Shown: piece by piece, positions 8,549 to 63,575 of the stretch
Layout of the letters: every line of letters starts with the position of its first letter
Numbering within the stretch: position 1 is the first letter of the stretch
From: an uncultured Actinomycetes bacterium
GTDB lineage: Bacteria; Actinomycetota; Thermoleophilia; Gaiellales; Gaiellaceae
Reading direction: 5' to 3'
DNA length: 64,000 bases
Assembly (NCBI GenBank): GCA_963762085.1
Contig: CAVXJD010000003.1
Coordinates: 64,506-128,505, forward strand
Made by a program: the position numbers and the translations under genes
The notes under the pieces: model-generated
What the model saw: the letters and a program-made list of their open reading frames with translations, nothing else
Database searches by the model: none
What the model was told of the DNA's origin: nothing

Positions 8549-10249
8549 ATGCAGCTCAGGCTCGATGCCGCCGACAGGCTCGTGGAGCTGGTCGAGGAAC
8601 GGGGCGGCGTCCTCCCGGTCGAGGAGGCGGCCCGGTCGCTCTTCGCCCTCTCGCGGGCACCGGCCGGGCTGGCGCGCGATCTGCTCGCGGACATCGTCGG
8701 CGCAGACTCCCGCCTCGACTGGAGTGGCCGCTCGGTCGGGCTCGCCGGCTCGCAGCTCCCGGCGCTCCCTCTCGAGGCAGCCACGTACGTGGTGGTCGAC
8801 CTCGAGACGACCGGTCTCGCCCCGGGTCGCGCGCGCATTTGCGAGATAGGCGCCGTTCGGGTTCGCGGCCTCGAGCTCGCAGCGGCGTTCGAGAGCCTCG
8901 TCGATCCGGCCGTCGCTCTGCCCGCGAGCATCACGGCGTTGACGGGCCTCTCCGACGCAGACCTCCAGGGAGCGCCGTCGCCCGGGGCCGCGGTCGCCCG
9001 TTTCCTCGACTTCGCCGGCGACTGCGTGCTCGTGGCCCACAATGCGCGGTTCGACGTCGGCTTCCTGAATCACGAGGTCGAGCGCTTGTACGGACGGCGG
9101 CTCGGCTTGCCCGTCCTGGACACCGTCTGGCTGGCGCGGCGGCTGCTCGCGGGTCGAGCCGGACGCGCGAGCCTCGCGTCCCTGGCGTATTTCTTCGGCA
9201 CCTCGACGGAGCCCTGTCACCGGGCGTTGCCCGACGCACGGGCGACGGGCGAGATCCTCGTCCATCTCCTGGGGCTCGCCCAGGAGCGCGGAGCGCGCTC
9301 GGTTGCAGACGTCCTCGAGCTGGCGGCGCCTCGAGCGCGCCGCGTGCACGCGAAGCGCGGGCTCGCTTTCGGGACCCCCGAGCGCCCGGGCGTCTACGTC
9401 TTCCGCGATGTGCACGGACAGGCGCTCTACGTGGGTCGCGCCCGGAACCTCCGGGCCCGGCTTCGCTCCTATTTCCGTTCGGAGAGGCAGCGTCCCGCGG
9501 TCGAGGCGGCCCTCGCAGCGCTCGACCGGATCGAATGGACCATCCTCGGGTCGGAGCTCGAGGCCGGCCTCGAGGAGCTGCGGCTGATCCGCGAGCTCCG
9601 GCCACCGGCCAACGCCCGGAGCGCTCGGCCGGACCGTTACGTCTACCTTCGCCGGCGGGGCGGCACGATGGTGGTCACGTCGCGGCCGGGCGAGCTCGGC
9701 CCGATCCGGAGCCGGCGCCGCGCCGAGCGGGCCGCGCGAGCGCTGGCAGGAAGCTCGGAGGAGGAGCTCGCGCTGATCCGGTCCGGTGGCGCGTTGCCGC
9801 GTCTCCGGGCTCGCCTGCGCGACCTGTCCGAGTCGCTGCGTTACGAGGAGGCGGCGAAGCTGCGTGACCGCATCAAGGGACTCGAGGAGGTAGTGCGCGA
9901 TCTGAGGACGCTTGATCGGCTCCGCTCGCTGGGCGCGTGCCTGGTCGTCCCGGCCCAGGAGCAGGGCTCACTGCGGGGCGTCTTCGTTGCCGGGGGGAAG
10001 GTCGCCTGCGTGCGGACGTTCCCGGCCGCTGGGGCTGCAGCAGTTCTCGAAGTGCGTGCCGGGCTCGCGATCGCCCGGGCGGCGCAGGCTGACGGGACGA
10101 CGTTCGACGCCGAGGCTGCCGACGAGCTTCTCCTCATCGGCTCCTTCCTGCGCCGGCCGCCGCCCGAGCTTTCGGTTTCAACCCTCGACGAAGAGGCGAT
10201 TCTTGCTGTGTGTGCAGGAAAGGGTCGTCTTTGGGCAGGTGTAGCCTAA
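8549..10249 (+). CDS. DEDD 3'-5' exonuclease fused to a GIY-YIG/UVR nuclease (Cho/UvrC-like)
   Basis: 566 aa. Exo motifs VVVDLETTG and AHNARFD. GIY-YIG block PGVYVFRDVHGQALYVGRARNLRARLRSY. UVR-like YEEAAKLRDRI. Confidence 0.8.
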   Translation: MQLRLDAADRLVELVEERGGVLPVEEAARSLFALSRAPAGLARDLLADIVGADSRLDWSGRSVGLAGSQLPALPLEAATYVVVDLETTGLAPGRARICEIGAVRVRGLELAAAFESLVDPAVALPASITALTGLSDADLQGAPSPGAAVARFLDFAGDCVLVAHNARFDVGFLNHEVERLYGRRLGLPVLDTVWLARRLLAGRAGRASLASLAYFFGTSTEPCHRALPDARATGEILVHLLGLAQERGARSVADVLELAAPRARRVHAKRGLAFGTPERPGVYVFRDVHGQALYVGRARNLRARLRSYFRSERQRPAVEAALAALDRIEWTILGSELEAGLEELRLIRELRPPANARSARPDRYVYLRRRGGTMVVTSRPGELGPIRSRRRAERAARALAGSSEEELALIRSGGALPRLRARLRDLSESLRYEEAAKLRDRIKGLEEVVRDLRTLDRLRSLGACLVVPAQEQGSLRGVFVAGGKVACVRTFPAAGAAAVLEVRAGLAIARAAQADGTTFDAEAADELLLIGSFLRRPPPELSVSTLDEEAILAVCAGKGRLWAGVA

Positions 10250-10258
10250 GCTCCGTTC

Positions 10259-11191
10259 ATGAGGCAGGAGCTCGAGGCCGCCGCCACGATCTCGGCGGGA
10301 GCATTCGCTGACCGGGTCGCGGAGGCGGTGGAGCGGAAACGGAGCCAGCTTCTCGTGGGGCTCGACCCGCGTGCAGAGCTCCTGCCGGTCGAGCTTCGGG
10401 CTGGCGCCCATGCCGGCCGGGCGGCGGCGGCTGACGCCTGTGCCCGGTTCTGTACGGGACTCGTGGACGCGGTTTGCCCGTACGTCGTCGGGGTGAAGGT
10501 TCAACTGGCTTTTTTCGAAGCCCTCGGCGCCGACGGGGCACGAGCCTTCGAGGACGTTTGCGCCTATGCGCGCACCGCCGGGCTGATCGTGATCGCGGAC
10601 GGGAAGCGGGGCGACATCGGCTCGACGGCACGAGCGTACGCGGATGCGTACCTCGAAGCGCACGAGGACGGTTCCGCTCCGGCGGTCGATGCGCTCACCG
10701 TGAACCCCTATCTCGGGAGCGACTCCGTCGAGCCGCTGATCGCGGCGTGCCGGCGCTCCGGCACCGGCATCTTCTGTCTCGTCCACACGTCGAACTCCGG
10801 GAGCGTCGACGTCCAGGACCTCGCGACTTCCGACGGCCGGCGGGTCTGGCATCACCTCGCCGAGCTGGTCGATCAGTGGGGCGCGGAGCTCGTCGGAGAC
10901 AGAGGAATCTCGAGCGTCGGCGCGGTAGTCGGCGCGACCTACCCCAGGGCGGTCGGGGAGGCGAGGCGCCTGATGCCGAAAGCCATCCTGCTCCTGCCCG
11001 GGATCGGTGCTCAGGGGGCCACACCCGCGGACGTGGCTCGGGCGTTCACGAGCGGGCCATCCAGTGCGCTCGTGCCGGTCTCCCGCTCGATCATCTACGC
11101 ATTTCGGGTCGACGGGGCGGACTGGCGGAAGGCGGCCGCGGCCGAGGCTGCGCGCTTGCGGCGGGAGGTCTGGGGGGTAGCCGGGTGGTAG
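10259..11191 (+). CDS. pyrF: orotidine 5'-phosphate decarboxylase, long (type 2) form
   Basis: 310 aa. Contains VKVQLAFFEALG and ADGKRGDIGSTARAYA motifs. Confidence 0.85.
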   Translation: MRQELEAAATISAGAFADRVAEAVERKRSQLLVGLDPRAELLPVELRAGAHAGRAAAADACARFCTGLVDAVCPYVVGVKVQLAFFEALGADGARAFEDVCAYARTAGLIVIADGKRGDIGSTARAYADAYLEAHEDGSAPAVDALTVNPYLGSDSVEPLIAACRRSGTGIFCLVHTSNSGSVDVQDLATSDGRRVWHHLAELVDQWGAELVGDRGISSVGAVVGATYPRAVGEARRLMPKAILLLPGIGAQGATPADVARAFTSGPSSALVPVSRSIIYAFRVDGADWRKAAAAEAARLRREVWGVAGW

Positions 11192-11541
11192 ACCCCGACC
11201 AGCTCCGCGATTGGGGCCCGCGTCTGCTTGCGCCGCTCGCCTTCTTCGTGGCAGCGACGGTGCTCGTGCTCGTCGTCCATCGCGCTCTGAACGCTGACAG
11301 CGGCGCGACCCCGACCCCGGCGCCCAGGGTCACTGAGCCCGGGACGAGCGTGACCCAGCCCGCGACGAGCACCAGGGACGAGGCCCCTCCCGCGAAGAAG
11401 AAGTTCTACCGCGTGCAACCCGGCGACACCCTTGATGCGATCGCGGCGCGCTTCAAGACGACGACTGCGGACCTGATCACGCTCAACCCCGAGATCGACC
11501 CGTTGTCACTGAGCGTGGGCCAGCGAATAAGAATCCGTTAA
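11185..11541 (+). CDS. membrane-anchored LysM domain protein
   Basis: The in-frame GTG at 11185 overlaps the pyrF stop. One TM helix is followed by a C-terminal LysM domain, YRVQPGDTLDAIAARFKTTTADLITLNPEI...GQRIRI. Confidence 0.75.
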   Translation: MVDPDQLRDWGPRLLAPLAFFVAATVLVLVVHRALNADSGATPTPAPRVTEPGTSVTQPATSTRDEAPPAKKKFYRVQPGDTLDAIAARFKTTTADLITLNPEIDPLSLSVGQRIRIR

Positions 11542-11548
11542 CCGACCT

Positions 11549-11609
11549 CTAAGAGAGCTTGTCGAAACGCAGCAGTGCCGTCGAGCGGCGATTCAACAAT
11601 CTCCCCTAG
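11549..11609 (+). repeat. 61-bp short member of the CTAG-bounded palindromic repeat family
   Basis: CTAAGAGAGCTTGTCGAAACGCAGCAGTGCCGTCG...CGATTCAACAATCTCCCCTAG. It shares both termini with the 168/170-bp copies at 44598 and 54729. Confidence 0.7.
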
Positions 11610-11935
11610 CCGTCGCGGGAGAGCTCGCGCCGTCGCTGCTCGGCACGGACTTTCTTGGCCGCGTGGACACCGGCAAGCGCGATCGTCATGAATGGGTTCC
11701 CGAGGGTGCGGGCACGGACCATGCCCACCTCGACGCGCCGCTCCCGGCGAGGGATTCTGAGGTGGCGCGGCGGACTGTCCAGAGGAACGACACGTTCCCG
11801 GCCCTTCCTCTCTTCGCCCGTCCAGACAAAGAATCGCGTCGGACGCAGATCGAAGCCGCCGAGTGACCCGATCTGCACCTCGAACGAGCGCTCGACCCCG
11901 CGGACGCGCACGGGCTTTGTCTCCTCGGACCCCAT
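11606..11935 (-). CDS. hypothetical protein
   Basis: 109 aa with high GC3. It is the only sizeable ORF in the gap. I recognise no family. Confidence 0.35.
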   Translation of the reverse strand: MGSEETKPVRVRGVERSFEVQIGSLGGFDLRPTRFFVWTGEERKGRERVVPLDSPPRHLRIPRRERRVEVGMVRARTLGNPFMTIALAGVHAAKKVRAEQRRRELSRDG

Positions 11936-45544: not shown

Positions 45545-45865
45545 CTAGACCTCGGCGAGACCCAGATTCCGCTCGAGCATGCCCTTGGGCTGGGCGCCCA
45601 CGGCGGCCGCGGCCGGCTTGCCGTCGCGGAAGATGATGATCGTGGGAATGCTCATGACGCCGTAGCGCTGCGCGAGGGCAGGCTGCTCGTCGATGTTCAC
45701 TTTTGCGATCCGAAGCTCACCGGATCGCTCCTCGGCGATCTGATCCAGGACCGGAGCGACGGCATGGCACGGGCCACACCACTCCGCCCAGAAGTCCACC
45801 ACGACCGGCTGCTCGCTCTCGAGCACCTCGGCTTCGAATGTCGTCTCTGTCACTTCAGTAGTCAT
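45545..45865 (-). CDS. trxA: thioredoxin
   Basis: 106 aa. Contains VVVDFWAEWCGPCH. An AAAGGAGA ribosome-binding site lies upstream. Confidence 0.95.
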   Translation of the reverse strand: MTTEVTETTFEAEVLESEQPVVVDFWAEWCGPCHAVAPVLDQIAEERSGELRIAKVNIDEQPALAQRYGVMSIPTIIIFRDGKPAAAAVGAQPKGMLERNLGLAEV

Positions 45866-55917: not shown

Positions 55918-55991
55918 CGGGACGTGGCGCAGCCTGGTAGCGCACCTGCTTTGGGAGCAGGGGGTCGCGAGTTCAAATCTCGCCGTCCCGA
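55918..55991 (+). tRNA. tRNA-Pro (anticodon UGG)
   Basis: Hand-folded cloverleaf. Acceptor CGGGACG/CGTCCCG, D stem GCGC/GCGC, anticodon stem CCTGC/GCAGG with loop TTTGGGA, T arm GCGAG-TTCAAAT-CTCGC, discriminator A. No CCA is encoded. Confidence 0.9.
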
Positions 55992-56066: not shown

Positions 56067-57242
56067 TCAGACGTCCCCGTCCGGCACGATCCCCCGGCTG
56101 AAGCTTTCCACCTGTTCAGGGGTAAACGGCGGGCGGGAAAGCTGCTCGCTCAGGTGGAAGGCACAGAACATGTGGACGATGTAGTGCATCCGCTGCTGGA
56201 GATCCGACCAGTCGTGCGCGCCGCAGTCGTCGAGAGCCGGCGCAACCGGTTCAAACCGTGCCAGCAGCTCGACCAGATCCGTGTCGGCGGGCTCGTCGAG
56301 CGCCTCCGGGTACGCGTCGGCCAGGTGCGTCCCGAGGGCCAGCACCCGCTCCGGCAGCGACATGACCATGAACGACTCCGTGATCACTTCGCGTGCGAGC
56401 CTGCTCGCGCTTCGCTGCACGCCTCCCGCCACGACACCCACAACGACGGCGGCCGGTCGCCGGACAACAGGCCACCAGCGGCCTGCTGACGGGAAGAGAG
56501 CCTCGAGGGCGCGGCGCCCCAGATCCTTCTGTGTGGCGTAGGCGGCGTCGAGGGCCTCGCGAATCTGCGGCTGCAGGCGCGTCTGCTCGTGGAAGCCGAT
56601 TTCGAGGTTCGCGAGGACGGCGAGCTCGGTGCGCGCCTTCGGGTCGTGCTCGCGCTGCCGCCGCTCATAGCGGACGAACGCCCGGCGCAAGTAGCGCTGC
56701 CCCTCGGGTGGGTCACCGGGCTGCAGTCGGGCGAGGAAGCGCTGGAAGGAAGGAGACTCGGCCACGTCAGGCGGGCACTCATGGAGATAGCGCGCGAACT
56801 GGAGTCCGATCTCCTCGAACACCTTCAGGTTCCCGCGTGCGACGGCGTCGCTGGCACACTCGAACGCGTCGAACGGTGTGTGCAGCGCAGCCGTCAGGCG
56901 CCCCATCCGCGACTCGCGCTCAAACAGGCCGTGGCGTAGGAGCCGACGCCACAACGTCGCAATCGGATGCAGCAGCCAGCGGTCCTGGCCGAGCTTGCGG
57001 CTGAAGTGCTCGACTAGATCCTCACCGCGGATCGTCCGCCCCGCCTGGCGCGAGGCCCACGTGGCGTACGTGCACCAGTTCGCGCCCTCGCCGCTTCGTT
57101 CCGTGAACGCCGCCGCGAGACGCGAGTAGCAGTAGGTGATCTCGAGGTTTCGGATGATCGGGTTCGCGATCGCGACGATCCGCCGGACATCGTCCGCACT
57201 CGGTATCTGCGTCGATCGGTTCGAATCGGGTCTCACGGCCAT
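56067..57242 (-). CDS. hypothetical all-alpha protein, unknown family
   Basis: 391 aa with high GC3. Has conserved-looking blocks (NLEITYCYSRLAAAF, GANWCTYATWASRQAGRTIRGEDL). I cannot assign a family. Confidence 0.6.
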   Translation of the reverse strand: MAVRPDSNRSTQIPSADDVRRIVAIANPIIRNLEITYCYSRLAAAFTERSGEGANWCTYATWASRQAGRTIRGEDLVEHFSRKLGQDRWLLHPIATLWRRLLRHGLFERESRMGRLTAALHTPFDAFECASDAVARGNLKVFEEIGLQFARYLHECPPDVAESPSFQRFLARLQPGDPPEGQRYLRRAFVRYERRQREHDPKARTELAVLANLEIGFHEQTRLQPQIREALDAAYATQKDLGRRALEALFPSAGRWWPVVRRPAAVVVGVVAGGVQRSASRLAREVITESFMVMSLPERVLALGTHLADAYPEALDEPADTDLVELLARFEPVAPALDDCGAHDWSDLQQRMHYIVHMFCAFHLSEQLSRPPFTPEQVESFSRGIVPDGDV

Positions 57243-57324
57243 AGCGTCTCACGGAGCGCAGACCTGTCGCCTGGCCGGTGCGATACCCACGAGAAGTCGC
57301 TCGTCGGCGAGTAGTCTCCCGCCG

Positions 57325-58083
57325 GTGAGCGAGCCCCATGCCGATGTCGTCGAGGAGGGCCGCCGGCTCGTCACCCTCGCGCTGCAGGAAAACCTGCCGC
57401 TTCGTCTTCTGGGGGGTGTCGCGATCAGGCTCCGCGGCCCCGAGACAGGACATTCGGCGCTCGAGCGCTCCTACGCGGATCTCGACTTCGCAGCCGGAAA
57501 GGGCTCGTCCAGGAAAGCGGCGTCCTTCTTCGAGGTGGCGGGCTACGTTCCGGATGTCGCCTTCAACACCCTCCAGGGAAGCGAGCGCTTGCTCTTCTGG
57601 GACGGCGCCAACCGGCGGCAGGTGGACGTGTTCGTCGGCGCGTTCTCGATGTCCCACAAGATTCCGCTCGCGGACCGCCTCGAGCTCGAGCCGGTCTCGG
57701 TTCCGCTCGCTGAGCTCCTCCTGACGAAGCTCCAGATCGCCGAGCTGAACGAGAAGGACGTGCGAGACACGCTGGCGCTCCTCCTCGAGCACCCGGTCGG
57801 AGACGAGGACGGCGACACCGTCAACGCCGCCCGTGTCGCGGCGCTTTGCGCCGCGGACTGGGGGCTCTGGCGCACCATCACCGGGAATCTGGAGGCAACG
57901 CTCGCCCGCCTGGATGCCTATGCCCTGTCGGCGGACGAGCAGCGCCTCGTGGCTGACCGGGCACGGGCGCTTCTCGACCGCATCGAGGCGGAGCCAAAGT
58001 CTCGCGCCTGGCGCCTTCGCGCGCGCATCGGGGAGCGAAAGCGGTGGTACGAGCTACCGGAAGAGGTTGCCGGCGGGCCCTAG
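57325..58083 (+). CDS. nucleotidyltransferase-fold protein (MNT/AbiEii-like minimal NTase)
   Basis: The in-frame GTG at 57325 gives 252 aa. LRLLGGVAIRL...SYADLDFAA fits the G-[GS]-x(9-13)-D-x-D NTase signature. The C-terminal half is helical. Confidence 0.5.
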   Translation: MSEPHADVVEEGRRLVTLALQENLPLRLLGGVAIRLRGPETGHSALERSYADLDFAAGKGSSRKAASFFEVAGYVPDVAFNTLQGSERLLFWDGANRRQVDVFVGAFSMSHKIPLADRLELEPVSVPLAELLLTKLQIAELNEKDVRDTLALLLEHPVGDEDGDTVNAARVAALCAADWGLWRTITGNLEATLARLDAYALSADEQRLVADRARALLDRIEAEPKSRAWRLRARIGERKRWYELPEEVAGGP

Positions 58084-58097
58084 GGGCGAGTCGAGCG

Positions 58098-58141
58098 GTT
58101 GCAAGCACCGCTGCCGCGTTGCAATACTTGCGTCGGTGCAA
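58098..58141 (+). promoter_or_regulatory. three GTTGCAA/GGTGCAA repeats, candidate IclR operator
   Basis: GTTGCAA at 58098 and 58118, and GGTGCAA at 58135, which overlaps the iclR GTG. TTGCAA is itself palindromic. A GCAA-TAC-TTGC inverted repeat lies at 58121-58131. Confidence 0.3.
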
Positions 58142-58813
58142 TCCGCAGACAAGGCACTCGCGATCCTCGCAGCCTTCACCGAAGCGCGGCCCGAGCTCGG
58201 TGCGACCGAACTCGCTGGGGAGCTCGGGATGCACAAGAGCACCGTCTCGCGGCTTCTTGCAACGCTCGAGGCGCGCGGTCTCGTGCGCCGCGCCGGCGAT
58301 CGCTTTCTTCCCGGGCCGGAGCTGGCGCGACTCGGGTCCCTGGCCGCCAGAGGCCTGGCGCTTCTCCCCACCGCGCGCGATCCGCTCGCGCGTCTTGCAG
58401 ACGAGACCTCGGAGACGGTGAACCTCGCGATCCGGGAAGGCGATCGCGTCCTGAACGTGTACCAGGTCGAGACCTCCCACTTCGTCGGAGTGAAGGACTG
58501 GACCGGTCGAACGACACCGCTCGGCACGACCGCGAACGGCAAGGTGCTGCTCGCCTTCGGTGATGGCGGCGCTTCCACGGAGCTCGAAAGCATTCGTGGC
58601 TGCGGCTATGCGACGGCGGTGGAGGAGCTCGAGCCGGGCCTGAACTCCGCGGCCGCGCCGGTCTTCGATTGCACTGGCACTTGTGTGGCGGCGGTCTCGG
58701 TTGCAGGCCCGTCGTATCGCGTGACCGAAGAGCGGCTCGCAGATCTCGGCCGTGCATGCGTGGTGGCCGCGGACGAGATTTCTGCGGGCCTCGGGCACCG
58801 GAGAGCTGCTTGA
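58136..58813 (+). CDS. IclR-family transcriptional regulator
   Basis: The GTG at 58136 gives 225 aa. The HTH is VQSADKALAILAAF...LGATELAGELGMHKSTVSRLLATLE. The C-terminus is an IclR effector domain. Confidence 0.85.
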   Translation: MQSADKALAILAAFTEARPELGATELAGELGMHKSTVSRLLATLEARGLVRRAGDRFLPGPELARLGSLAARGLALLPTARDPLARLADETSETVNLAIREGDRVLNVYQVETSHFVGVKDWTGRTTPLGTTANGKVLLAFGDGGASTELESIRGCGYATAVEELEPGLNSAAAPVFDCTGTCVAAVSVAGPSYRVTEERLADLGRACVVAADEISAGLGHRRAA

Positions 58814-60030
58814 TGGCTTGGGAGGTGCGCACGTTCGGTCCGGGCGTGCTCGCGCCCGACGCCGCACGGATCGAGGGCTTGGCGCGCGCCGAGGCTGCAC
58901 TCGCCGGTGTCGACGTCGCGGTCGTCGAGCCGGGCGAGCCGGTGCGGGTCACGCACGTTCTTGATGCCGTCGAGCCACGGATCCGCCCTGACGGTCGCAA
59001 GGCATTTCCGACCGAGGATCGAGCGGGCGAGGGCGTGACGAATCGGATTAGCGACGTTGTTGTCCTTTCCTGCCTCGATTTCCCGGGAGAGGAACGTCCG
59101 CTGCACGAGCAGGAGTCGGTCGTCGATCTCGCAGGCCCGGCCGCCGAACTGACCCCTTTCGGCTCGATGCGTAACGTCGTCCTGACCTTCCGTCCCGGCG
59201 ACGATGCAGATCACCGAGCCATCGACAGCGCAGTTCGGCGTGCGACGCTTTGCGCGGCCGAGCTCCTGGCCGAGCCCACCCTGAGCGCCGAGCCGATCCA
59301 CACGCACACGTTCGCGCTCGAGCCGGCGGACGACGATTCGCTTCCGTCCATCGCGGCGCTCGTGCAACTGTCTGATCTCGGCCAGCTCTACCAGCTCTAC
59401 CTCTACGGAACCCCGGTCGGCGAGAGCGGTCTCCCGAAGCTCGTCGATCCGGCGGAGGTGATGGACGGAGCCGTGACTGCGGGCGAGTACCACTGGGCCG
59501 CGATGCGCAACCCGACCTACTTCTTCCAGCTCAACTCACTGATACGAACTCTCTACCGCGAGCACGGTAAGCGCCTGCGCTTCGCGGGCGTCGTACTCAT
59601 GCGGGGGTACGAGCAGTCGGCGGATGACAAGCAGCGCGCCGCGGACGCGGCTGCGCGTGTCGCGGTCGGACTGGGCGTCGACGGAGTCGTGATCACGACC
59701 GATGCCGGCGGCAACAGCCACACCGACACCATGCTCACGTGCCGAGCCTGCGAGAACGCGGGCGTGAAGACATCGGTGATCGTCTGCGAGGAGACCGATT
59801 TAGAAGCGACCGGGCCGATCCTGACCGATTGGGTCCCTGAGGCCGACTGCATCGTCTCGACGGGGAACGTCGAGCAGCTCGCTCCGGCCTGGAAGCCCGA
59901 GCGAGTGCTGGGCGGCGATCACCTTCTCGACGGCACGCCTGCTGCCGAAGCGGGACCGATCCCGGTTCGCAACTATCTTGGCGCTACTAACCAGATGGGC
60001 CAGCTCGACCTCGGAGCGACGTCATGGTGA
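58813..60030 (+). CDS. glycine/sarcosine/betaine reductase component B alpha/beta proprotein-like (GrdE/GrdG/GrdI family)
   Basis: The in-frame ATG at 58813 overlaps the iclR stop (TGATG) and gives 405 aa. Family assignment rests on overall resemblance and on position immediately upstream of grdB. Substrate type is not assignable. Confidence 0.65.
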   Translation: MAWEVRTFGPGVLAPDAARIEGLARAEAALAGVDVAVVEPGEPVRVTHVLDAVEPRIRPDGRKAFPTEDRAGEGVTNRISDVVVLSCLDFPGEERPLHEQESVVDLAGPAAELTPFGSMRNVVLTFRPGDDADHRAIDSAVRRATLCAAELLAEPTLSAEPIHTHTFALEPADDDSLPSIAALVQLSDLGQLYQLYLYGTPVGESGLPKLVDPAEVMDGAVTAGEYHWAAMRNPTYFFQLNSLIRTLYREHGKRLRFAGVVLMRGYEQSADDKQRAADAAARVAVGLGVDGVVITTDAGGNSHTDTMLTCRACENAGVKTSVIVCEETDLEATGPILTDWVPEADCIVSTGNVEQLAPAWKPERVLGGDHLLDGTPAAEAGPIPVRNYLGATNQMGQLDLGATSW

Positions 60031-61301
60031 GGGCCGTCCACTACCTGAATCAGTTCTTCGCGGGGCTCGGCGGCGAGGAGGCCGCGGGCACCGAGCCGAC
60101 TCGTCTCGACGGCCCGGTCGGGCCTGGCAAGGGACTTGCCGCGGCCCTCGAGGGGATCGAGATCGTCTCGACTGTCGCGTGCGGCGACGACTACTTCGGC
60201 GAGCACGAGGAAACCGTACTCGGGCAGCTCTTCGAGTTGATCGAGCGTGACCGGCCCGACTTGCTGGTCGCCGGCCCTGCGTTCGGGTCCGGGCGGTACG
60301 GCTATGCCTGCGCTCGTGTCGCGGCCGAAGCGAGCAGGCGTGGGATCCCTGGGCTTGCGGCGATGCACGAGGAGAATCCGGGTGTTGCAGCAGCAGCGGG
60401 CAAAGTGCTGATCGTCCCCACGGCCGTAAACGTGACAGGCATGCGTGACGCGCTACCGCGGATCGCCTCTCTCGCGAGCGCGGTGGCGAGCGGCCGCGAG
60501 CTGGGCCCACCCGAAGAGGAGGGTTACCTCCCGCGGGGGCTCCGACGAAACCGGCACCACGGTGCGACGGGCGCCGAGCGAGCTGTGGACCTCCTCCTCG
60601 CGAAGCTGAACGGCGAGACGCGCTCCGAGGTCGGAGGGGCGTTCGACCTGGTCGATCCCCCGGCACGCGTGGGCGATCTCTCGCAGGCTCTCATCGCCCT
60701 GGTGACCGAAGCGGGGTGTGTTCCTCAGGGAAATCCTGATCGGTTGCCAAGTGTGCGCGCCCAGGCGTGGCTGCGATATTCGCTCGCCGGCGAGACGCGA
60801 CTCGAGGCTGGTGAGTACGAGAGCGTGCACGGCGGCTTCGACGTCGCCCGAGCGAACGAGGATCCGAACAGGCTCGTTCCGCTCGACACGGTGAGCGGCC
60901 TCGTCGACGAGGGCCGGATCGGCCGGCTGCATGAGTTCTTCTACACGACGACCGGGAATGGCACCCCCGTTTCAATCTCGACCGGATTCGGCCGTGAAAT
61001 CGCGCGAGAGTTGCGTGACGCCGGCGTTGAAGCCGTTCTCCTGTCGGGGACCTGAGGGACGGGCACGCGCTGCGGGGCAGTGCTCGCGAAGGAGATCGAA
61101 CGGGAGGGGATACCGACAGTGTTCGTGACCTCCCTGCCGACGATCTCGACGATGATCGGCGTCAACCGAACCCTTCGCGGCCCCGCGATCACTCATCCGT
61201 TCGGTCTCGACGAGGAGGAGCGACGCCAGATCGTCGAGCGAGCGCTCGAGATGCTCGAGACAGACGTCGAGCCGACCACGGTCTGGGAGGTTGCTTCGTG
61301 A
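60024..61301 (+). CDS. grdB: reductase complex selenoprotein B (GrdB family), Sec at in-frame UGA 61053-61055
   Basis: Track ORFs 60024..61055 and 61080..61301 are in the same frame. Read-through gives ...AVLLSGT-U-GTGTRCGAVLAKEIEREGIPTVFVTSLP..., the GrdB U-G-T-x-T-R-C-G-A motif. Total length is 425 aa. Confidence 0.85.
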
Positions 61302-61452
61302 GGATCAAGGGACTGAGGGTCGTTGTTCTTGACGCGCGTGTATCTCGGGTCCCGACCCGCCCCCCTGCTCACGCGCAAGCGTACTGCCCGAAAGCACTCG
61401 CGTGGCACACCGACTGTGCCACTGGCGTCACGAAAGTTGAGCCGCGAATCAC

Positions 61453-62784
61453 GTGAGTGGCGCCGCAATTCACGGGTGCTCGCTCGTGCTCGCCCACGCC
61501 CCTGACCTCGTGCAGCACGGGTCGAAGCCGGCGCGCGAGATCGCGGCGACGCAGGACGGCTTGCTAGCTCGAATCAACGTGGCCCTCCGCACGTACGACG
61601 AGGCCCTCGCCTACGCGCCGAACCAGGCGTTCGTCGGAAACCTCCGCCCCGAGGAGCTCTGGGAGGTCGAACGGCCTCGCTGGCGTCACCCCGTCAAGCC
61701 GAGCCGGAAGGGCCCGTACGGCGTCATCGTCGGCGAGGAAGAGCTCTACCGACGCATGGCCGAGGCGGACGTGTTCCAGCTCTTTCGCCTGAACGGCGAG
61801 GAGGCGGGAGACGGGGCTCTGCCGCTCGCGCTGCGCGGCCGGCTCGCCGGCTCGATGCTTCGCGCCCACGAGCTCGACGAGAGCCTCTCGGCCAGCGTGC
61901 TGCTCGAGAATCTCGCCTGCAAGACGACCGGGGCTCTAGCCCTCGAGCACCTCCTGAGCCAGACCGGCTTCCCTGCCGAAGAGGTCGACTATGCGCTCGG
62001 CTGCGGTGAGGAAGCTGTCGGGGATCGTTACCAGCGCGGTGGCGGAAACCTCGGGAAGGCGATCGCGGAGCAGGCCGGGTGCACGAATGCGTCCGGCGCA
62101 GACGTCAAGGCGTTCTGCGCGGGGCCGGTTCACGCAATCGTCGTTGCCGCATCGCTCGTCTCGGCGGGAGTCTTCAGCCACGTCGCCGTGGTCGCAGGCG
62201 GTTCGCTCGCGAAGCTCGGAATGAAGTTCTCGGGCGCCCTGAAGCATGACGTCCCGGTCCTCGAGGACGTTCTTGCTGGGCTTGCAATCCTGGTCGGCCC
62301 GCCAGGGGGCGGCGCTCCCGTCGTTCGGCTCGATGCCGTGGGGCGTCACAGAATCGGCTCCGGTTCGGCTCAGCAGGCCGTCCTCGAAGATCTCGTCGTC
62401 GAGCCTCTGAGTCGGCTGCGCCGCGGCATACTCGACGTCGACCGCTACGCAACGGAGCTCCACGACCCGGAGATCACTGAGCCGGCCGGCGCCGGGAACG
62501 TCCCGAGCCGGAACTACAAGCTGATCGGAGCGCTTGCGGTCAAGCGCGGGGAGCTTCCGCGAGACGAGCTCGACGGCTTCGAACGCCTGCGCGGGCTCCC
62601 CGGATACTCGCCGACCCAGGGACACGTCGCTTCTGCGGTCCCGTACCTCCCGCATGCGCTGAAGGCACTCCGAGCGGGTGATCTCGGCTCTGCGATGCTG
62701 GTCGCGAAGGGCTCGTTGTTCCTCGGTCGCATGACCGAGCTGGCTGACGGGATGTCCGTTCTGCTCGAACCCGGAAAGGAGTGA
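61453..62784 (+). CDS. grdC: reductase complex component C beta subunit-like (GrdC family, thiolase-like fold)
   Basis: 443 aa with a GTG start. Contains LVLAHAPDLVQHG, YAPNQAFVGN, RGGGNLGKAIAEQAGC, VVAGGSLAKLGMK, PAGAGNVPSRNYK, PTQGH and KGSLFLGRMT blocks. Confidence 0.8.
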   Translation: MSGAAIHGCSLVLAHAPDLVQHGSKPAREIAATQDGLLARINVALRTYDEALAYAPNQAFVGNLRPEELWEVERPRWRHPVKPSRKGPYGVIVGEEELYRRMAEADVFQLFRLNGEEAGDGALPLALRGRLAGSMLRAHELDESLSASVLLENLACKTTGALALEHLLSQTGFPAEEVDYALGCGEEAVGDRYQRGGGNLGKAIAEQAGCTNASGADVKAFCAGPVHAIVVAASLVSAGVFSHVAVVAGGSLAKLGMKFSGALKHDVPVLEDVLAGLAILVGPPGGGAPVVRLDAVGRHRIGSGSAQQAVLEDLVVEPLSRLRRGILDVDRYATELHDPEITEPAGAGNVPSRNYKLIGALAVKRGELPRDELDGFERLRGLPGYSPTQGHVASAVPYLPHALKALRAGDLGSAMLVAKGSLFLGRMTELADGMSVLLEPGKE

Positions 62785-62787
62785 TCG

Positions 62788-63114
62788 ATGGTCGAAGCAA
62801 CGCCGGAGACGTTCAAGGATCTGACACGGGAGGGAAGCGTCCTCGTCGACTTCTGGGGGCCGCGTTGTCAGCCGTGTCTGCAGATGATGCCGACCGTGGA
62901 GAAGCTCGAGCAGGAATCGGCGGGCGCCGTCAAGGTGGTGAAGGTGAACGCGACCGAGAATCGAGACGTATGTCGCGAGCTCCGCGTTTTCGGCCTGCCG
63001 ACGTACGTTCTTCTGCGCGACGGCGAGGAACTCGAGCGCCTCTCGGGGGACGTGTCCAAGGAGGACATCGAGAAGGCGTTCGCAACGCTCGGGAACGGAG
63101 GTGAGGCAGCATGA
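62788..63114 (+). CDS. thioredoxin-family protein with CQPC active site
   Basis: 108 aa. Contains [16 protein letters not shown]. An AAAGGAG ribosome-binding site is present. The stop overlaps the grdA ATG (ATGA). Confidence 0.85.
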
Positions 63115-63575
63115 AGCTCGAGGGAAAGAAAGTGATCGCGCTGGGTGAGCGGGACGGTGTCCCGGGCCCGGCCATCGCCGATGCAGTCAGGTCGGCCGGC
63201 GCTGAGGTCGTCTTCGTCGAGACGGAGTGCTTCGTCTGAACGGCGGCAGGCGCCATGGACCCCGAGAACCAGGACCGCATCAAGAGCCTGGTCGACGAGC
63301 ACGGGGCCGACGACCTGGTGGTGGTGCTCGGAGCCGCTGACCTCGAGTCGCTCGAAGTCACGGCCGAGACGGTCACTGTCGGAGATCCGGCCTACGTGGG
63401 TCCGCTGGCAGGAGTTCAGTTGGGACTCCCCGTTGTTCACATCCTCGAAGAGGACATCAAGGATCAGATCGACCCTCAGGTCTACGAGGATCAGGTCGGG
63501 CTGCTCGAGATGACGCTCGACGTCGAGCAGGTGCGTGAGGCGGTGAAGAGCTTCCCGGGCCGGGACGGCGCCTGA
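63111..63575 (+). CDS. grdA: reductase complex selenoprotein A, Sec at in-frame UGA 63237-63239
   Basis: From ATG 63111: [54 protein letters not shown]...[14 protein letters not shown]... This is the canonical C-F-V-U-T-A-A-G-A-M-D motif with U at codon 43. The track shows only the part downstream of the UGA. Confidence 0.9.

Follow-up and report, generated by a model that had tools for sequence, protein, structure and literature searches.

A GrdD-less selenoprotein operon of the glycine/sarcosine/betaine reductase family in a Gaiellaceae genome

We analyzed a 64,000-nucleotide (nt) stretch of a genome from an uncultured Gaiellaceae bacterium (assembly GCA_963762085.1, contig CAVXJD010000003.1, positions 64,506 to 128,505), hereafter called the window, for an operon related to the glycine/sarcosine/betaine reductases (Grd). 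Grd enzymes are textbook examples of selenoenzymes in anaerobic Stickland fermentation and in the reductive glycine pathway; the energy they yield comes through the acetyl phosphate made with GrdD. The window contains six co-directional genes at 58136-63575 on the forward strand, in the order iclR-alpha-grdB-grdC-trx-grdA, with an in-frame selenocysteine (Sec) codon in both grdB and grdA. The first gene encodes an IclR-family transcriptional regulator of 225 amino acids (aa; 58136..58813) with helix-turn-helix and C-terminal domains (PF09339 and PF01614), whose best partial NCBIfam matches, to BhcR, PcaR and IclR, were each below cut-off. Its TGA stop codon shares its A with the ATG of the PF09338 gene (TGATG), which encodes a 405-aa protein B alpha-type subunit of the non-pyruvoyl, ‘aromatic’ type (58813..60030). 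The next gene starts 7 nt inside the alpha gene and encodes a 425-aa selenoprotein B-type subunit with Sec344 (60024..61301; TIGR01918, PF07355; in-frame TGA at 61053-61055). After a spacer of 151 nt follows grdC, encoding a 443-aa protein C beta subunit that we term ‘type 2 short’ (61453..62784; NF040746; Cys222 codon at 62116-62118), and 3 nt further on lies the gene for a 108-aa Grd-type thioredoxin (62788..63114; PF00085) with the active site CQPC at 62866-62877 (WGPRCQPC). The last gene, which overlaps the end of the thioredoxin gene in the sequence ATGA, encodes the 154-aa selenoprotein A, GrdA (63111..63575; NF040748), with the motif C40-F-V-U43 and an in-frame TGA at 63237-63239. An earlier note on this DNA had described the six genes with these overlaps and gaps, and the re-read coordinates and family models agree with it.

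As reference loci, we used those of Enterococcus gilvus (L005), Acetoanaerobium noterae (L006), and Photobacterium (L007). The glycine reductase locus of A. noterae has the order grdX-trxB-trxA-grdE-grdA-grdB-grdC-grdD, the annotated betaine reductase locus of E. gilvus has the order trxB-trx-grdA-grdC-grdD-grdI-grdH-BCCT, and grdD directly follows grdC in all reference loci. Using queries from these loci, we detected no tblastn match to grdD, trxB, or grdX in the window at E<=1; the earlier note had likewise described the operon as lacking these genes. The grdB-grdC spacer (61302..61452, forward strand) is kept in the closest relatives in alignment; it is well conserved, C-rich run and TTGACG box included, among the window and the related loci L008 and L009, and divergent in L010 and L016. 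Rfam gave no match for it, nor was a consensus promoter or terminator apparent, and a scan for such consensus signals across the operon gave nothing useful. The spacer may nevertheless be the site of an internal promoter.

The alpha subunit matched PF09338 with 263 bits (cut-off 22). On the GrdG model, whose cut-off is 780 bits, it reached only 173 bits, compared with 668 for bona fide GrdE and 345 for GrdI, and its FarE score of 81 bits was also below the cut-off (675). Its identity was 32% to GrdE and 30% to GrdI. GrdE reportedly cleaves itself at a cysteine, which turns into a pyruvoyl group (Bednarski et al. 2001, as cited in PMC10838667). The alignment places Tyr226 of the window protein (59488-59490), within a GEYHW motif (59482..59496, forward strand), at the position of this cysteine: A. 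noterae GrdE reads LSGN-C-VSAC-DKNPTY and the window protein TAGE-Y-HWAA-MRNPTY, with Ala at the second GrdE cysteine. GrdI of E. gilvus has Phe at the cleavage site (SGS-F-MPCS). Because Tyr replaces the cleavage Cys and Ala the second Cys, the window alpha subunit is predicted not to be a proprotein, and the description ‘GrdE-like proprotein’ in the earlier note had to be abandoned. Processing cysteines are also missing from FarE and GrdI, neither of which is a proprotein (PMC10838667). The GEYHW motif was invariant in all 103 clade members for which the motif region was recovered. We then aligned 124 alpha sequences, comprising 121 full-length representatives of the nearest 50%-identity clusters and three references. 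The residue at the site was Tyr in 68 and Phe in 19 (87/124 together) and Cys in only 7, with Leu, His, Asn, and others also occurring, so that the window protein belongs to a large, uncharacterized ‘aromatic-type’ radiation. Most relatives of this substrate-binding subunit are likewise predicted to be unable to form the pyruvoyl cofactor. We also considered a carbonyl cofactor derived from the Tyr and rated it unlikely, because the site is occupied by Phe, Leu, His, or Asn in related clusters. The PDB contained no relatives of the two protein B subunits.

The selenoprotein B subunit scored 410 bits on the subfamily model TIGR01918 (cut-off 65) and stayed below the equivalog cut-offs of GrdB (380 vs 602), GrdF (413 vs 800), and GrdH (350 vs 775). 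Its nearest characterized types are GrdB and GrdF, with 45% identity to GrdB and 37% to E. gilvus GrdH. The models of D-proline reductase were not reached (PrdA, 24 bits vs 700; PrdB, 78 bits vs 300). Judged by the GrdB and GrdF motifs taken from Nobu et al. 2022 (PMC9751293), the subunit failed three of the six GrdB elements, all of which the A. noterae GrdB control passed, and lacked both GrdF elements; the subunit has GPAFGSGRYG, VHGGFDV, and RLVPLD. One broad Grd phylogeny left out sequences lacking the GrdB motif (PMC9751293). Read through the TGA, the Sec context is LLSGT-U-GTGTRCG, in which U-G-T-G-T-R-C replaces the canonical U-G-T-C-T-R-C, and contexts of this type are common to most non-canonical clades. 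These models and motifs place the protein B subunits of the window outside all characterized substrate clades.

Both in-frame UGAs lie at the canonical Sec positions of selenoproteins B and A, in agreement with the earlier note. A TGA was present at the Sec position in every recovered GrdB-type and GrdA site of the surveyed loci, and the flanking protein sequence, before and after each TGA, is conserved across phyla. GrdA scored 221 bits on NF040748 (cut-off 130), shares 53-58% identity with the reference GrdA proteins, and has the Sec context ETECFV-U-TAAGAMD with the C-x-x-U redox motif. Downstream of the grdB UGA we found a hairpin resembling a selenocysteine insertion sequence (SECIS), with 7 bp and a G-rich apical loop (GGG), at 61067..61083 on the forward strand, beginning 15 nt from the U of the UGA. 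In an RNAalifold analysis of 16 sequences, 99% of the cells were paired; a U-A pair was changed to C-G in a compensatory manner in 7 of the 16, a neighboring pair was changed from G-C to G-U, and both pair variants were present in two sub-clades. The single-sequence fold of this hairpin had a z-score of only -1.45, and the single-sequence folds after the UGAs are not significant alone. The Grd thioredoxins have a CxPC site with a non-Gly second residue, which reads CQPC here and CEPC in the clostridial and enterococcal references; CQPC was the most frequent site in the surveyed loci. In a metagenome-assembled genome (MAG) of Syntrophorhabdales (L046, 4442-4753, forward strand), the thioredoxin gene upstream of grdC has a TGA in place of the first active-site Cys (WGPQ-U-VAC), and its product looks like a selenocysteine thioredoxin in a grdD-less Grd locus. 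Two copies of grdA per locus were seen in Photobacterium sp. DA100 (L007, 8974-9896) and Alkalihalobacillus sp. BA299 (L072, 8551-9006 and 11806-12264).

GrdC scored 551 bits on NF040746, above the equivalog cut-off of 450, and an exact-sequence look-up of the window protein gave no record. Its Cys222, in the motif FCAG, is invariant and aligns with the catalytic-Cys motif AACAGF of KAS III (1mzj). An AlphaFold2 model of GrdC, built from a shallow alignment (at least 77% identity), had a predicted local distance difference test score of 51 and was not used for a fold search. We scanned GTDB species genomes with a GrdC alignment, which yielded 585 relatives, and retained the 80 most similar loci. 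In three of these, each from Bacillota, grdD follows grdC. The other 77, which represent more than 10 phyla, carry alpha-B-C-(Trx)-A or a permutation thereof, with no grdD in the surrounding 10 kb. They span Gaiellales/Thermoleophilia, other Actinomycetota, Acidimicrobiia, Solirubrobacterales, Chloroflexota, Thermodesulfobacteriota, Armatimonadota, Methylomirabilis, Nitrospinota, Burkholderiales, Gemmatimonadales, and Acidobacteriota, with Bacillaceae (Cytobacillus oceanisediminis, Lentibacillus kapialis) and Desulforhabdus sp. TSK as cultured carriers. Some of the grdD-less loci have protein B subunits that score as glycine or betaine reductase: GrdB of L015 reached 631 bits against the glycine reductase cut-off of 602, and GrdH of L070 reached 768 bits, just under the betaine reductase cut-off of 775. 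L015 and the other loci near these cut-offs have Cys-type or Phe-type alpha subunits. The earlier note had spoken of a ‘trimmed’ version; with this distribution, the operon is not a one-off. The absence of trxB and grdX, which the note had treated as distinguishing, carries little weight because trxB is a housekeeping gene and is present in some grdD-less loci.

GrdC itself differs between the two kinds of loci. A C-terminal tail of about 40 residues, IKSMIADAMRKLAENL, was found in all 36 grdD-linked GrdC proteins (38-48 aa) and is missing from grdD-less GrdC (median 10 aa, n=74); the four exceptions among the grdD-less proteins, with tails of 24-88 aa, comprise an in-frame GrdA fusion and apparent read-through artifacts, among others. 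In a neighbor-joining tree of GrdC, a single branch parts the 36 grdD-linked from the 74 grdD-less proteins with none misplaced. GrdC proteins of the window clade additionally lack an internal insert of 35-40 aa, giving a total length of 433-443 aa, and this insert-less short form was seen only in Actinomycetota loci whose alpha subunits carry GEYHW or GAYDW. The 443-aa GrdC of the window, which the earlier note had called shorter, lacks both the insert (about 35 aa) and the tail of grdD-linked GrdC.

The converse test was a scan of metagenomes for the GrdD motif GMGCTGP[IV] written with G/C-ending codons, and hence GC-biased. About 70 of the 90 matches were real grdD genes (GrdD corresponds to PF02504 in a protein-database search), including some on contigs of 62-74% GC. 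Wherever enough upstream DNA was available, grdD lay directly behind a canonical-type grdC, and no stand-alone grdD was found among the contigs with enough flanking DNA. A search with a high-GC GrdD query returned only Bacillota-type proteins among its best 120 matches, which neither shows nor excludes an actinobacterial GrdD. Within these two selected samples, one chosen by similarity to the window GrdC and the other by the GrdD motif, the absence of grdD appears as a trait of a large, deep GrdC lineage and not of the window alone. The survey suggests that protein C has a second, deep lineage in which GrdD is never encoded alongside it. In a Pyrinomonadaceae MAG (L056, ~9980-11930) and in a Dehalococcoidia genome (L079, ~10001-11900), the GrdC frame continues without a stop into GrdA until the Sec TGA, which suggests natural GrdC-GrdA fusions; such fusions would fit a direct GrdC-GrdA interaction in grdD-less systems.

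The closest proteins came from Gaiellaceae and Gaiellales MAGs and many soil metagenomes. Both the alpha subunit (at least 67% identity) and GrdC (at least 77% identity) are represented by more than 120 distinct 90%-identity clusters with full-length open reading frames (ORFs). The closest genome locus, L008 from an ‘Actinomycetes’ MAG (CAVROA01), is 94-98% identical protein by protein; L009 belongs to DATLQD01. Independent contigs repeat the gene order of the window, followed by a convergent Caa3_CtaG gene, and given this recurrence chance does not account for the arrangement. The iclR gene lies upstream of the operon in the window and in L001-L004, L008, L009, L011-13, L027, and L028, and is absent from this place in L010 and L016. 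In these sister Gaiellales loci, an APC-superfamily permease gene (AA_permease_2; L010, 5324-7186; L016, 3146-4807) stands in its place directly upstream of the alpha gene; the two permeases are 78-80% identical and have no homolog in the window. The regulator gene, which the earlier note described as ‘fused into’ the operon, overlaps the alpha gene and occurs in only part of the clade.

Further, more distant Actinomycetota loci with Tyr-type alpha subunits and short GrdC were L011-L014, L019, L024, L026-L028, L030, L036, L052, L063, and L071. Their flanks repeatedly carry genes for a class-III aminotransferase, a DAO-type FAD oxidoreductase or amine oxidase, and also an SBP_bac_8 polyamine-type ABC transporter, SDR, enolase-superfamily, SMP-30-like, and GntR proteins. 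These flanks resemble an amine-catabolic neighborhood and might give a hint of the substrate. Together, the permease and the amine-type neighbors suggest uptake of a small amino-acid or amine derivative, which need not be glycine betaine. Joint Genome Institute (JGI) annotations name several relatives ‘betaine reductase’, and databases already label such MAG proteins as ‘glycine/sarcosine/betaine reductase’ subunits. Literature searches gave no paper describing Grd in Gaiellales or Thermoleophilia, a grdD-less system, or the two lineages of GrdC.

The window has a G+C content of about 68%, and its other large ORFs that were scanned are housekeeping genes (pabBC, murI, pyrF, guaAB, glmS, fabI, ileS, lytB, and others). 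The high-GC actinobacterial host and the neighboring cytochrome-oxidase assembly gene named in the earlier note were both upheld; the convergent gene downstream of the operon is a Caa3_CtaG homolog, as identified from annotated relatives. The other flank had been labeled an ‘NTase’ gene, a label that could not be substantiated, as the upstream forward-strand ORF at 57136-58083 (315 aa) has no Pfam match. This ORF and the reverse-strand ORF at 56067-57242 both show a strong G+C bias at third codon positions and no Pfam match, and their 5′ ends, as drawn, overlap by ~107 nt. The forward ORF is kept upstream of the operon in five Gaiellaceae loci, and the pair (56067-58083) stands just past tRNA-Pro, where L001-L004 have a glyoxalase gene and a gene for a 252-aa protein. 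We considered the 315-aa ORF as a component of the system and rejected it, as it has no Pfam match and is not adjacent to the operon in L010 and L016. The only tRNA gene in the window is this tRNA-Pro (55918-55991), which was also the only hit of an Rfam scan, with no riboswitch or catalogued SECIS detected. A second, stand-alone thioredoxin homolog is encoded on the reverse strand at 45578-45826, ~13 kb upstream of the operon.

When compared with characterized systems, the operon shares features with several of them. Betaine reductase of Peptoclostridium (Eubacterium) acidaminophilum and relatives consists of GrdI and GrdH together with GrdA, GrdC/GrdD, and TrxA/TrxB. Common to this enzyme and the window are an unprocessed alpha subunit without a pyruvoyl-forming Cys, a Sec-containing beta subunit, GrdA with CxxU, GrdC, and a CxPC thioredoxin. 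The window differs in its high-GC actinobacterial host, in the lack of grdD, of the GrdC insert and tail, and of a betaine transporter, in having Tyr (GEYHW) where GrdI has Phe (SGSFMP) and U-G-T-G-T-R-C instead of U-G-T-C-T-R-C, and in its distance (30% identity for alpha and 37% for beta; GrdH score 350 vs 775). With the glycine reductases (GrdABCDE) of Clostridia, Photobacterium, and Desulfovibrio, the operon shares all five protein families but GrdD, the location of both Sec residues, and the overall logic of thioredoxin-driven reductive C-X cleavage. GrdE, however, is cleaved at Cys to give the pyruvoyl group, whereas the window has Tyr; GrdD, which comes after GrdC in the reference loci, is absent; and the window GrdB falls below the equivalog cut-off and off the published motif.

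FarE/FarB, the fluoroacetate reductase of Cloacibacillus porcorum, offers a precedent for a protein B of the Grd type whose substrate brings a self-sufficient leaving group. FarB has no CxxC beside its Sec (PMC10838667), and the window beta subunit likewise loses the first Cys of this CxxC (UGTGTRC), while neither alpha subunit has processing cysteines. The far operon has its own transporter and a radical-SAM gene and feeds a shared GrdA/C/D system (PMC10838667). Unlike FarE, the window alpha subunit scored far below the cut-off of the FarE model (81 bits vs 675), and the host of FarE/FarB is an anaerobic member of Synergistota. Finally, the GrdC core aligns with the KAS III (FabH)/thiolase superfamily around the catalytic Cys (FCAG vs AACAGF), which in KAS III is acylated by acyl-coenzyme A (acyl-CoA). 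The similarity is weak (E ~1e-5 over ~50-110 residues), and GrdC, unlike KAS III, has extra N- and C-terminal domains (DUF5940).

We therefore favor, with moderate confidence, the reading that the window encodes a functional, IclR-controlled Gaiellaceae operon for a Grd-family reductase that works without GrdD (‘type 2’). By homology, the operon has the core of the family, namely protein A, the beta and alpha subunits of protein B, the beta subunit of protein C, and the thioredoxin, and it lacks GrdD and the pyruvoyl-forming proprotein of the glycine and sarcosine enzymes and passes no substrate-specific model. With neither GrdD nor a pyruvoyl cofactor, the substrate is expected to differ from that of the textbook enzyme, and the end product probably does as well. 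This is the direction indicated by the earlier note, which had proposed a different substrate or a release without acetyl-phosphate formation.

For this type-2 operon, we infer the kind of substrate, the source of electrons, and the acceptor of the acetyl group as follows. A housekeeping thioredoxin reductase would reduce the CQPC thioredoxin, which in turn would reduce selenoprotein A (C-F-V-U). Protein B, composed of the uncleaved 405-aa alpha subunit and the Sec-containing beta subunit, would bind a small substrate of the form X-CH2-COO-. With Tyr at the position of the pyruvoyl-forming Cys, no Schiff base would be formed, so the substrate would be one whose leaving group departs without activation, for example a quaternary ammonium (betaine-like), sulfonium, or comparable group, as for GrdI/GrdH and FarE/FarB. 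The Tyr-His-Trp cluster would be suited to a cationic head group. Sec344 would then displace the leaving group, and the carboxymethyl group would pass to Sec43 of GrdA. In the established scheme, protein C makes an enzyme-bound acetyl thioester from Se-carboxymethyl-GrdA, and the PlsX-like GrdD frees acetyl phosphate (Andreesen; Arkowitz and Abeles; Kohlstock et al.). In the window system, GrdC would turn the carboxymethyl group into an acetyl thioester on the KAS III-like Cys222, and as GrdD, the subunit that forms acetyl phosphate, is missing, the acetyl group would leave by another route. Transfer to CoA, in a reversal of KAS III/thiolase chemistry, would be the most likely exit, with hydrolysis as the alternative.

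A bolder extension, which we put forward tentatively and regard as rather unlikely to hold in full, is that type-2 GrdC alone gives the acetyl group to CoA. The operon would then provide an O2-independent, thioredoxin/NADPH-driven route from an unknown betaine-like (onium- or otherwise activated) acetate derivative to acetyl-CoA in respiring soil Actinomycetota, and the Tyr- and Phe-type alpha subunits would represent many new specificities.

Several points weigh against the favored reading. The proposed substrate class derives from one residue and analogy, and neither a betaine transporter (BCCT or Opu) nor a gene for handling trimethylamine is adjacent to the operon in the window. The aminotransferase, DAO-type oxidase, and polyamine-type ABC transporter of the sister clades could indicate an amine other than betaine. 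The search for grdD covered the window and 10 kb either side in the relatives, and a stand-alone grdD may lie elsewhere, or PlsX or Pta may act in its stead. The losses of GrdD and of the pyruvoyl group are independent of each other, since grdD-less loci with Cys-type GrdE exist (L015 and others), and the acetyl-CoA step is likewise a conjecture from homology. In addition, the region downstream of the grdA UGA gave no convincing conserved hairpin, and neither sel genes nor tRNA-Sec were found in the 64-kb window among the larger ORFs and in the tRNA scan.

Among the alternatives to a GrdD-independent system, an orthodox betaine reductase with GrdH/GrdI function in an unusual host, which would convert glycine betaine to trimethylamine and an acetyl unit, deserves the most attention, although we consider it improbable. 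Its alpha subunit would be uncleavable, as in GrdI, several of the JGI annotations of relatives point this way, and grdD-less Bacillaceae loci carry GrdI/GrdH-like genes with 64% identity and a GrdH score almost at the cut-off (768 vs 775 bits). The window proteins, however, fit poorly: the beta subunit scores 350 bits on that GrdH model and shares more residues with GrdB (45%) than with GrdH (37%), the alpha subunit has 30% identity to GrdI and stays at 173 bits on the GrdG model, where GrdI itself reaches 345, the site motif reads GEYHWAAMRN and not SGSFMPSSSK, and no BCCT or Opu transporter is nearby. Less probable still, and in our judgment quite unlikely, is a rearranged canonical Grd system, in which grdD (and trxB) would lie elsewhere on the chromosome and the usual GrdC-GrdD protein C would yield acetyl phosphate. 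Our view extends over 64 kb of this genome and 10 kb either side in relatives, trxB is expected elsewhere in any case, and GrdC exceeds the NCBI equivalog cut-off, all of which would be compatible with it. Against this stand the position of grdD directly after grdC in all reference loci and in the metagenome matches with enough upstream DNA, the 77 loci, spread over more than 10 phyla, in which E, B, C, Trx, and A stay clustered but grdD never joins them, and the separate clade of grdD-less GrdC without the C-terminal tail of every grdD-linked GrdC.

We assign a very low probability to a true glycine (or sarcosine) reductase whose amine is activated without a Cys-derived pyruvoyl, for example by a carbonyl cofactor from another residue. 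The nearness of the beta subunit to GrdB and GrdF among the characterized types and the position of the Tyr inside a strictly conserved motif would fit such an enzyme, but the GrdB and GrdF motifs were failed. A cofactor-forming residue is moreover disfavored because the position varies in related clusters (Phe, Leu, His, Asn, and others) and is Phe in the characterized GrdI; we know of no precedent. A decaying or unexpressed relic, in which the TGAs are real stops, is hardly credible. The window shows no Sec machinery and no convincing SECIS for grdA, yet the alpha subunit and GrdC alike occur with full-length ORFs in their more than 120 clusters, the residues flanking each TGA are conserved in both directions across phyla, the gene junctions are translationally coupled, and the grdB hairpin is kept by compensatory changes.

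The interest of these results lies mainly in the wide occurrence of the variant and in the way it alters which product and energy yield can be assumed. Metagenome annotations of the form ‘glycine reductase -> acetyl-P -> ATP’ and ‘betaine reductase -> trimethylamine’ may mislead for abundant soil lineages. If transfer to CoA is true, the Grd machinery would no longer be an ATP-yielding fermentative module. The cultured carriers Cytobacillus, Lentibacillus, and Desulforhabdus open the protein C question to direct testing. The family may hold an untapped set of selenium-dependent enzymes that cleave C-N, C-S, or C-X bonds, and the use of selenium by common soil Gaiellaceae gains a concrete target.

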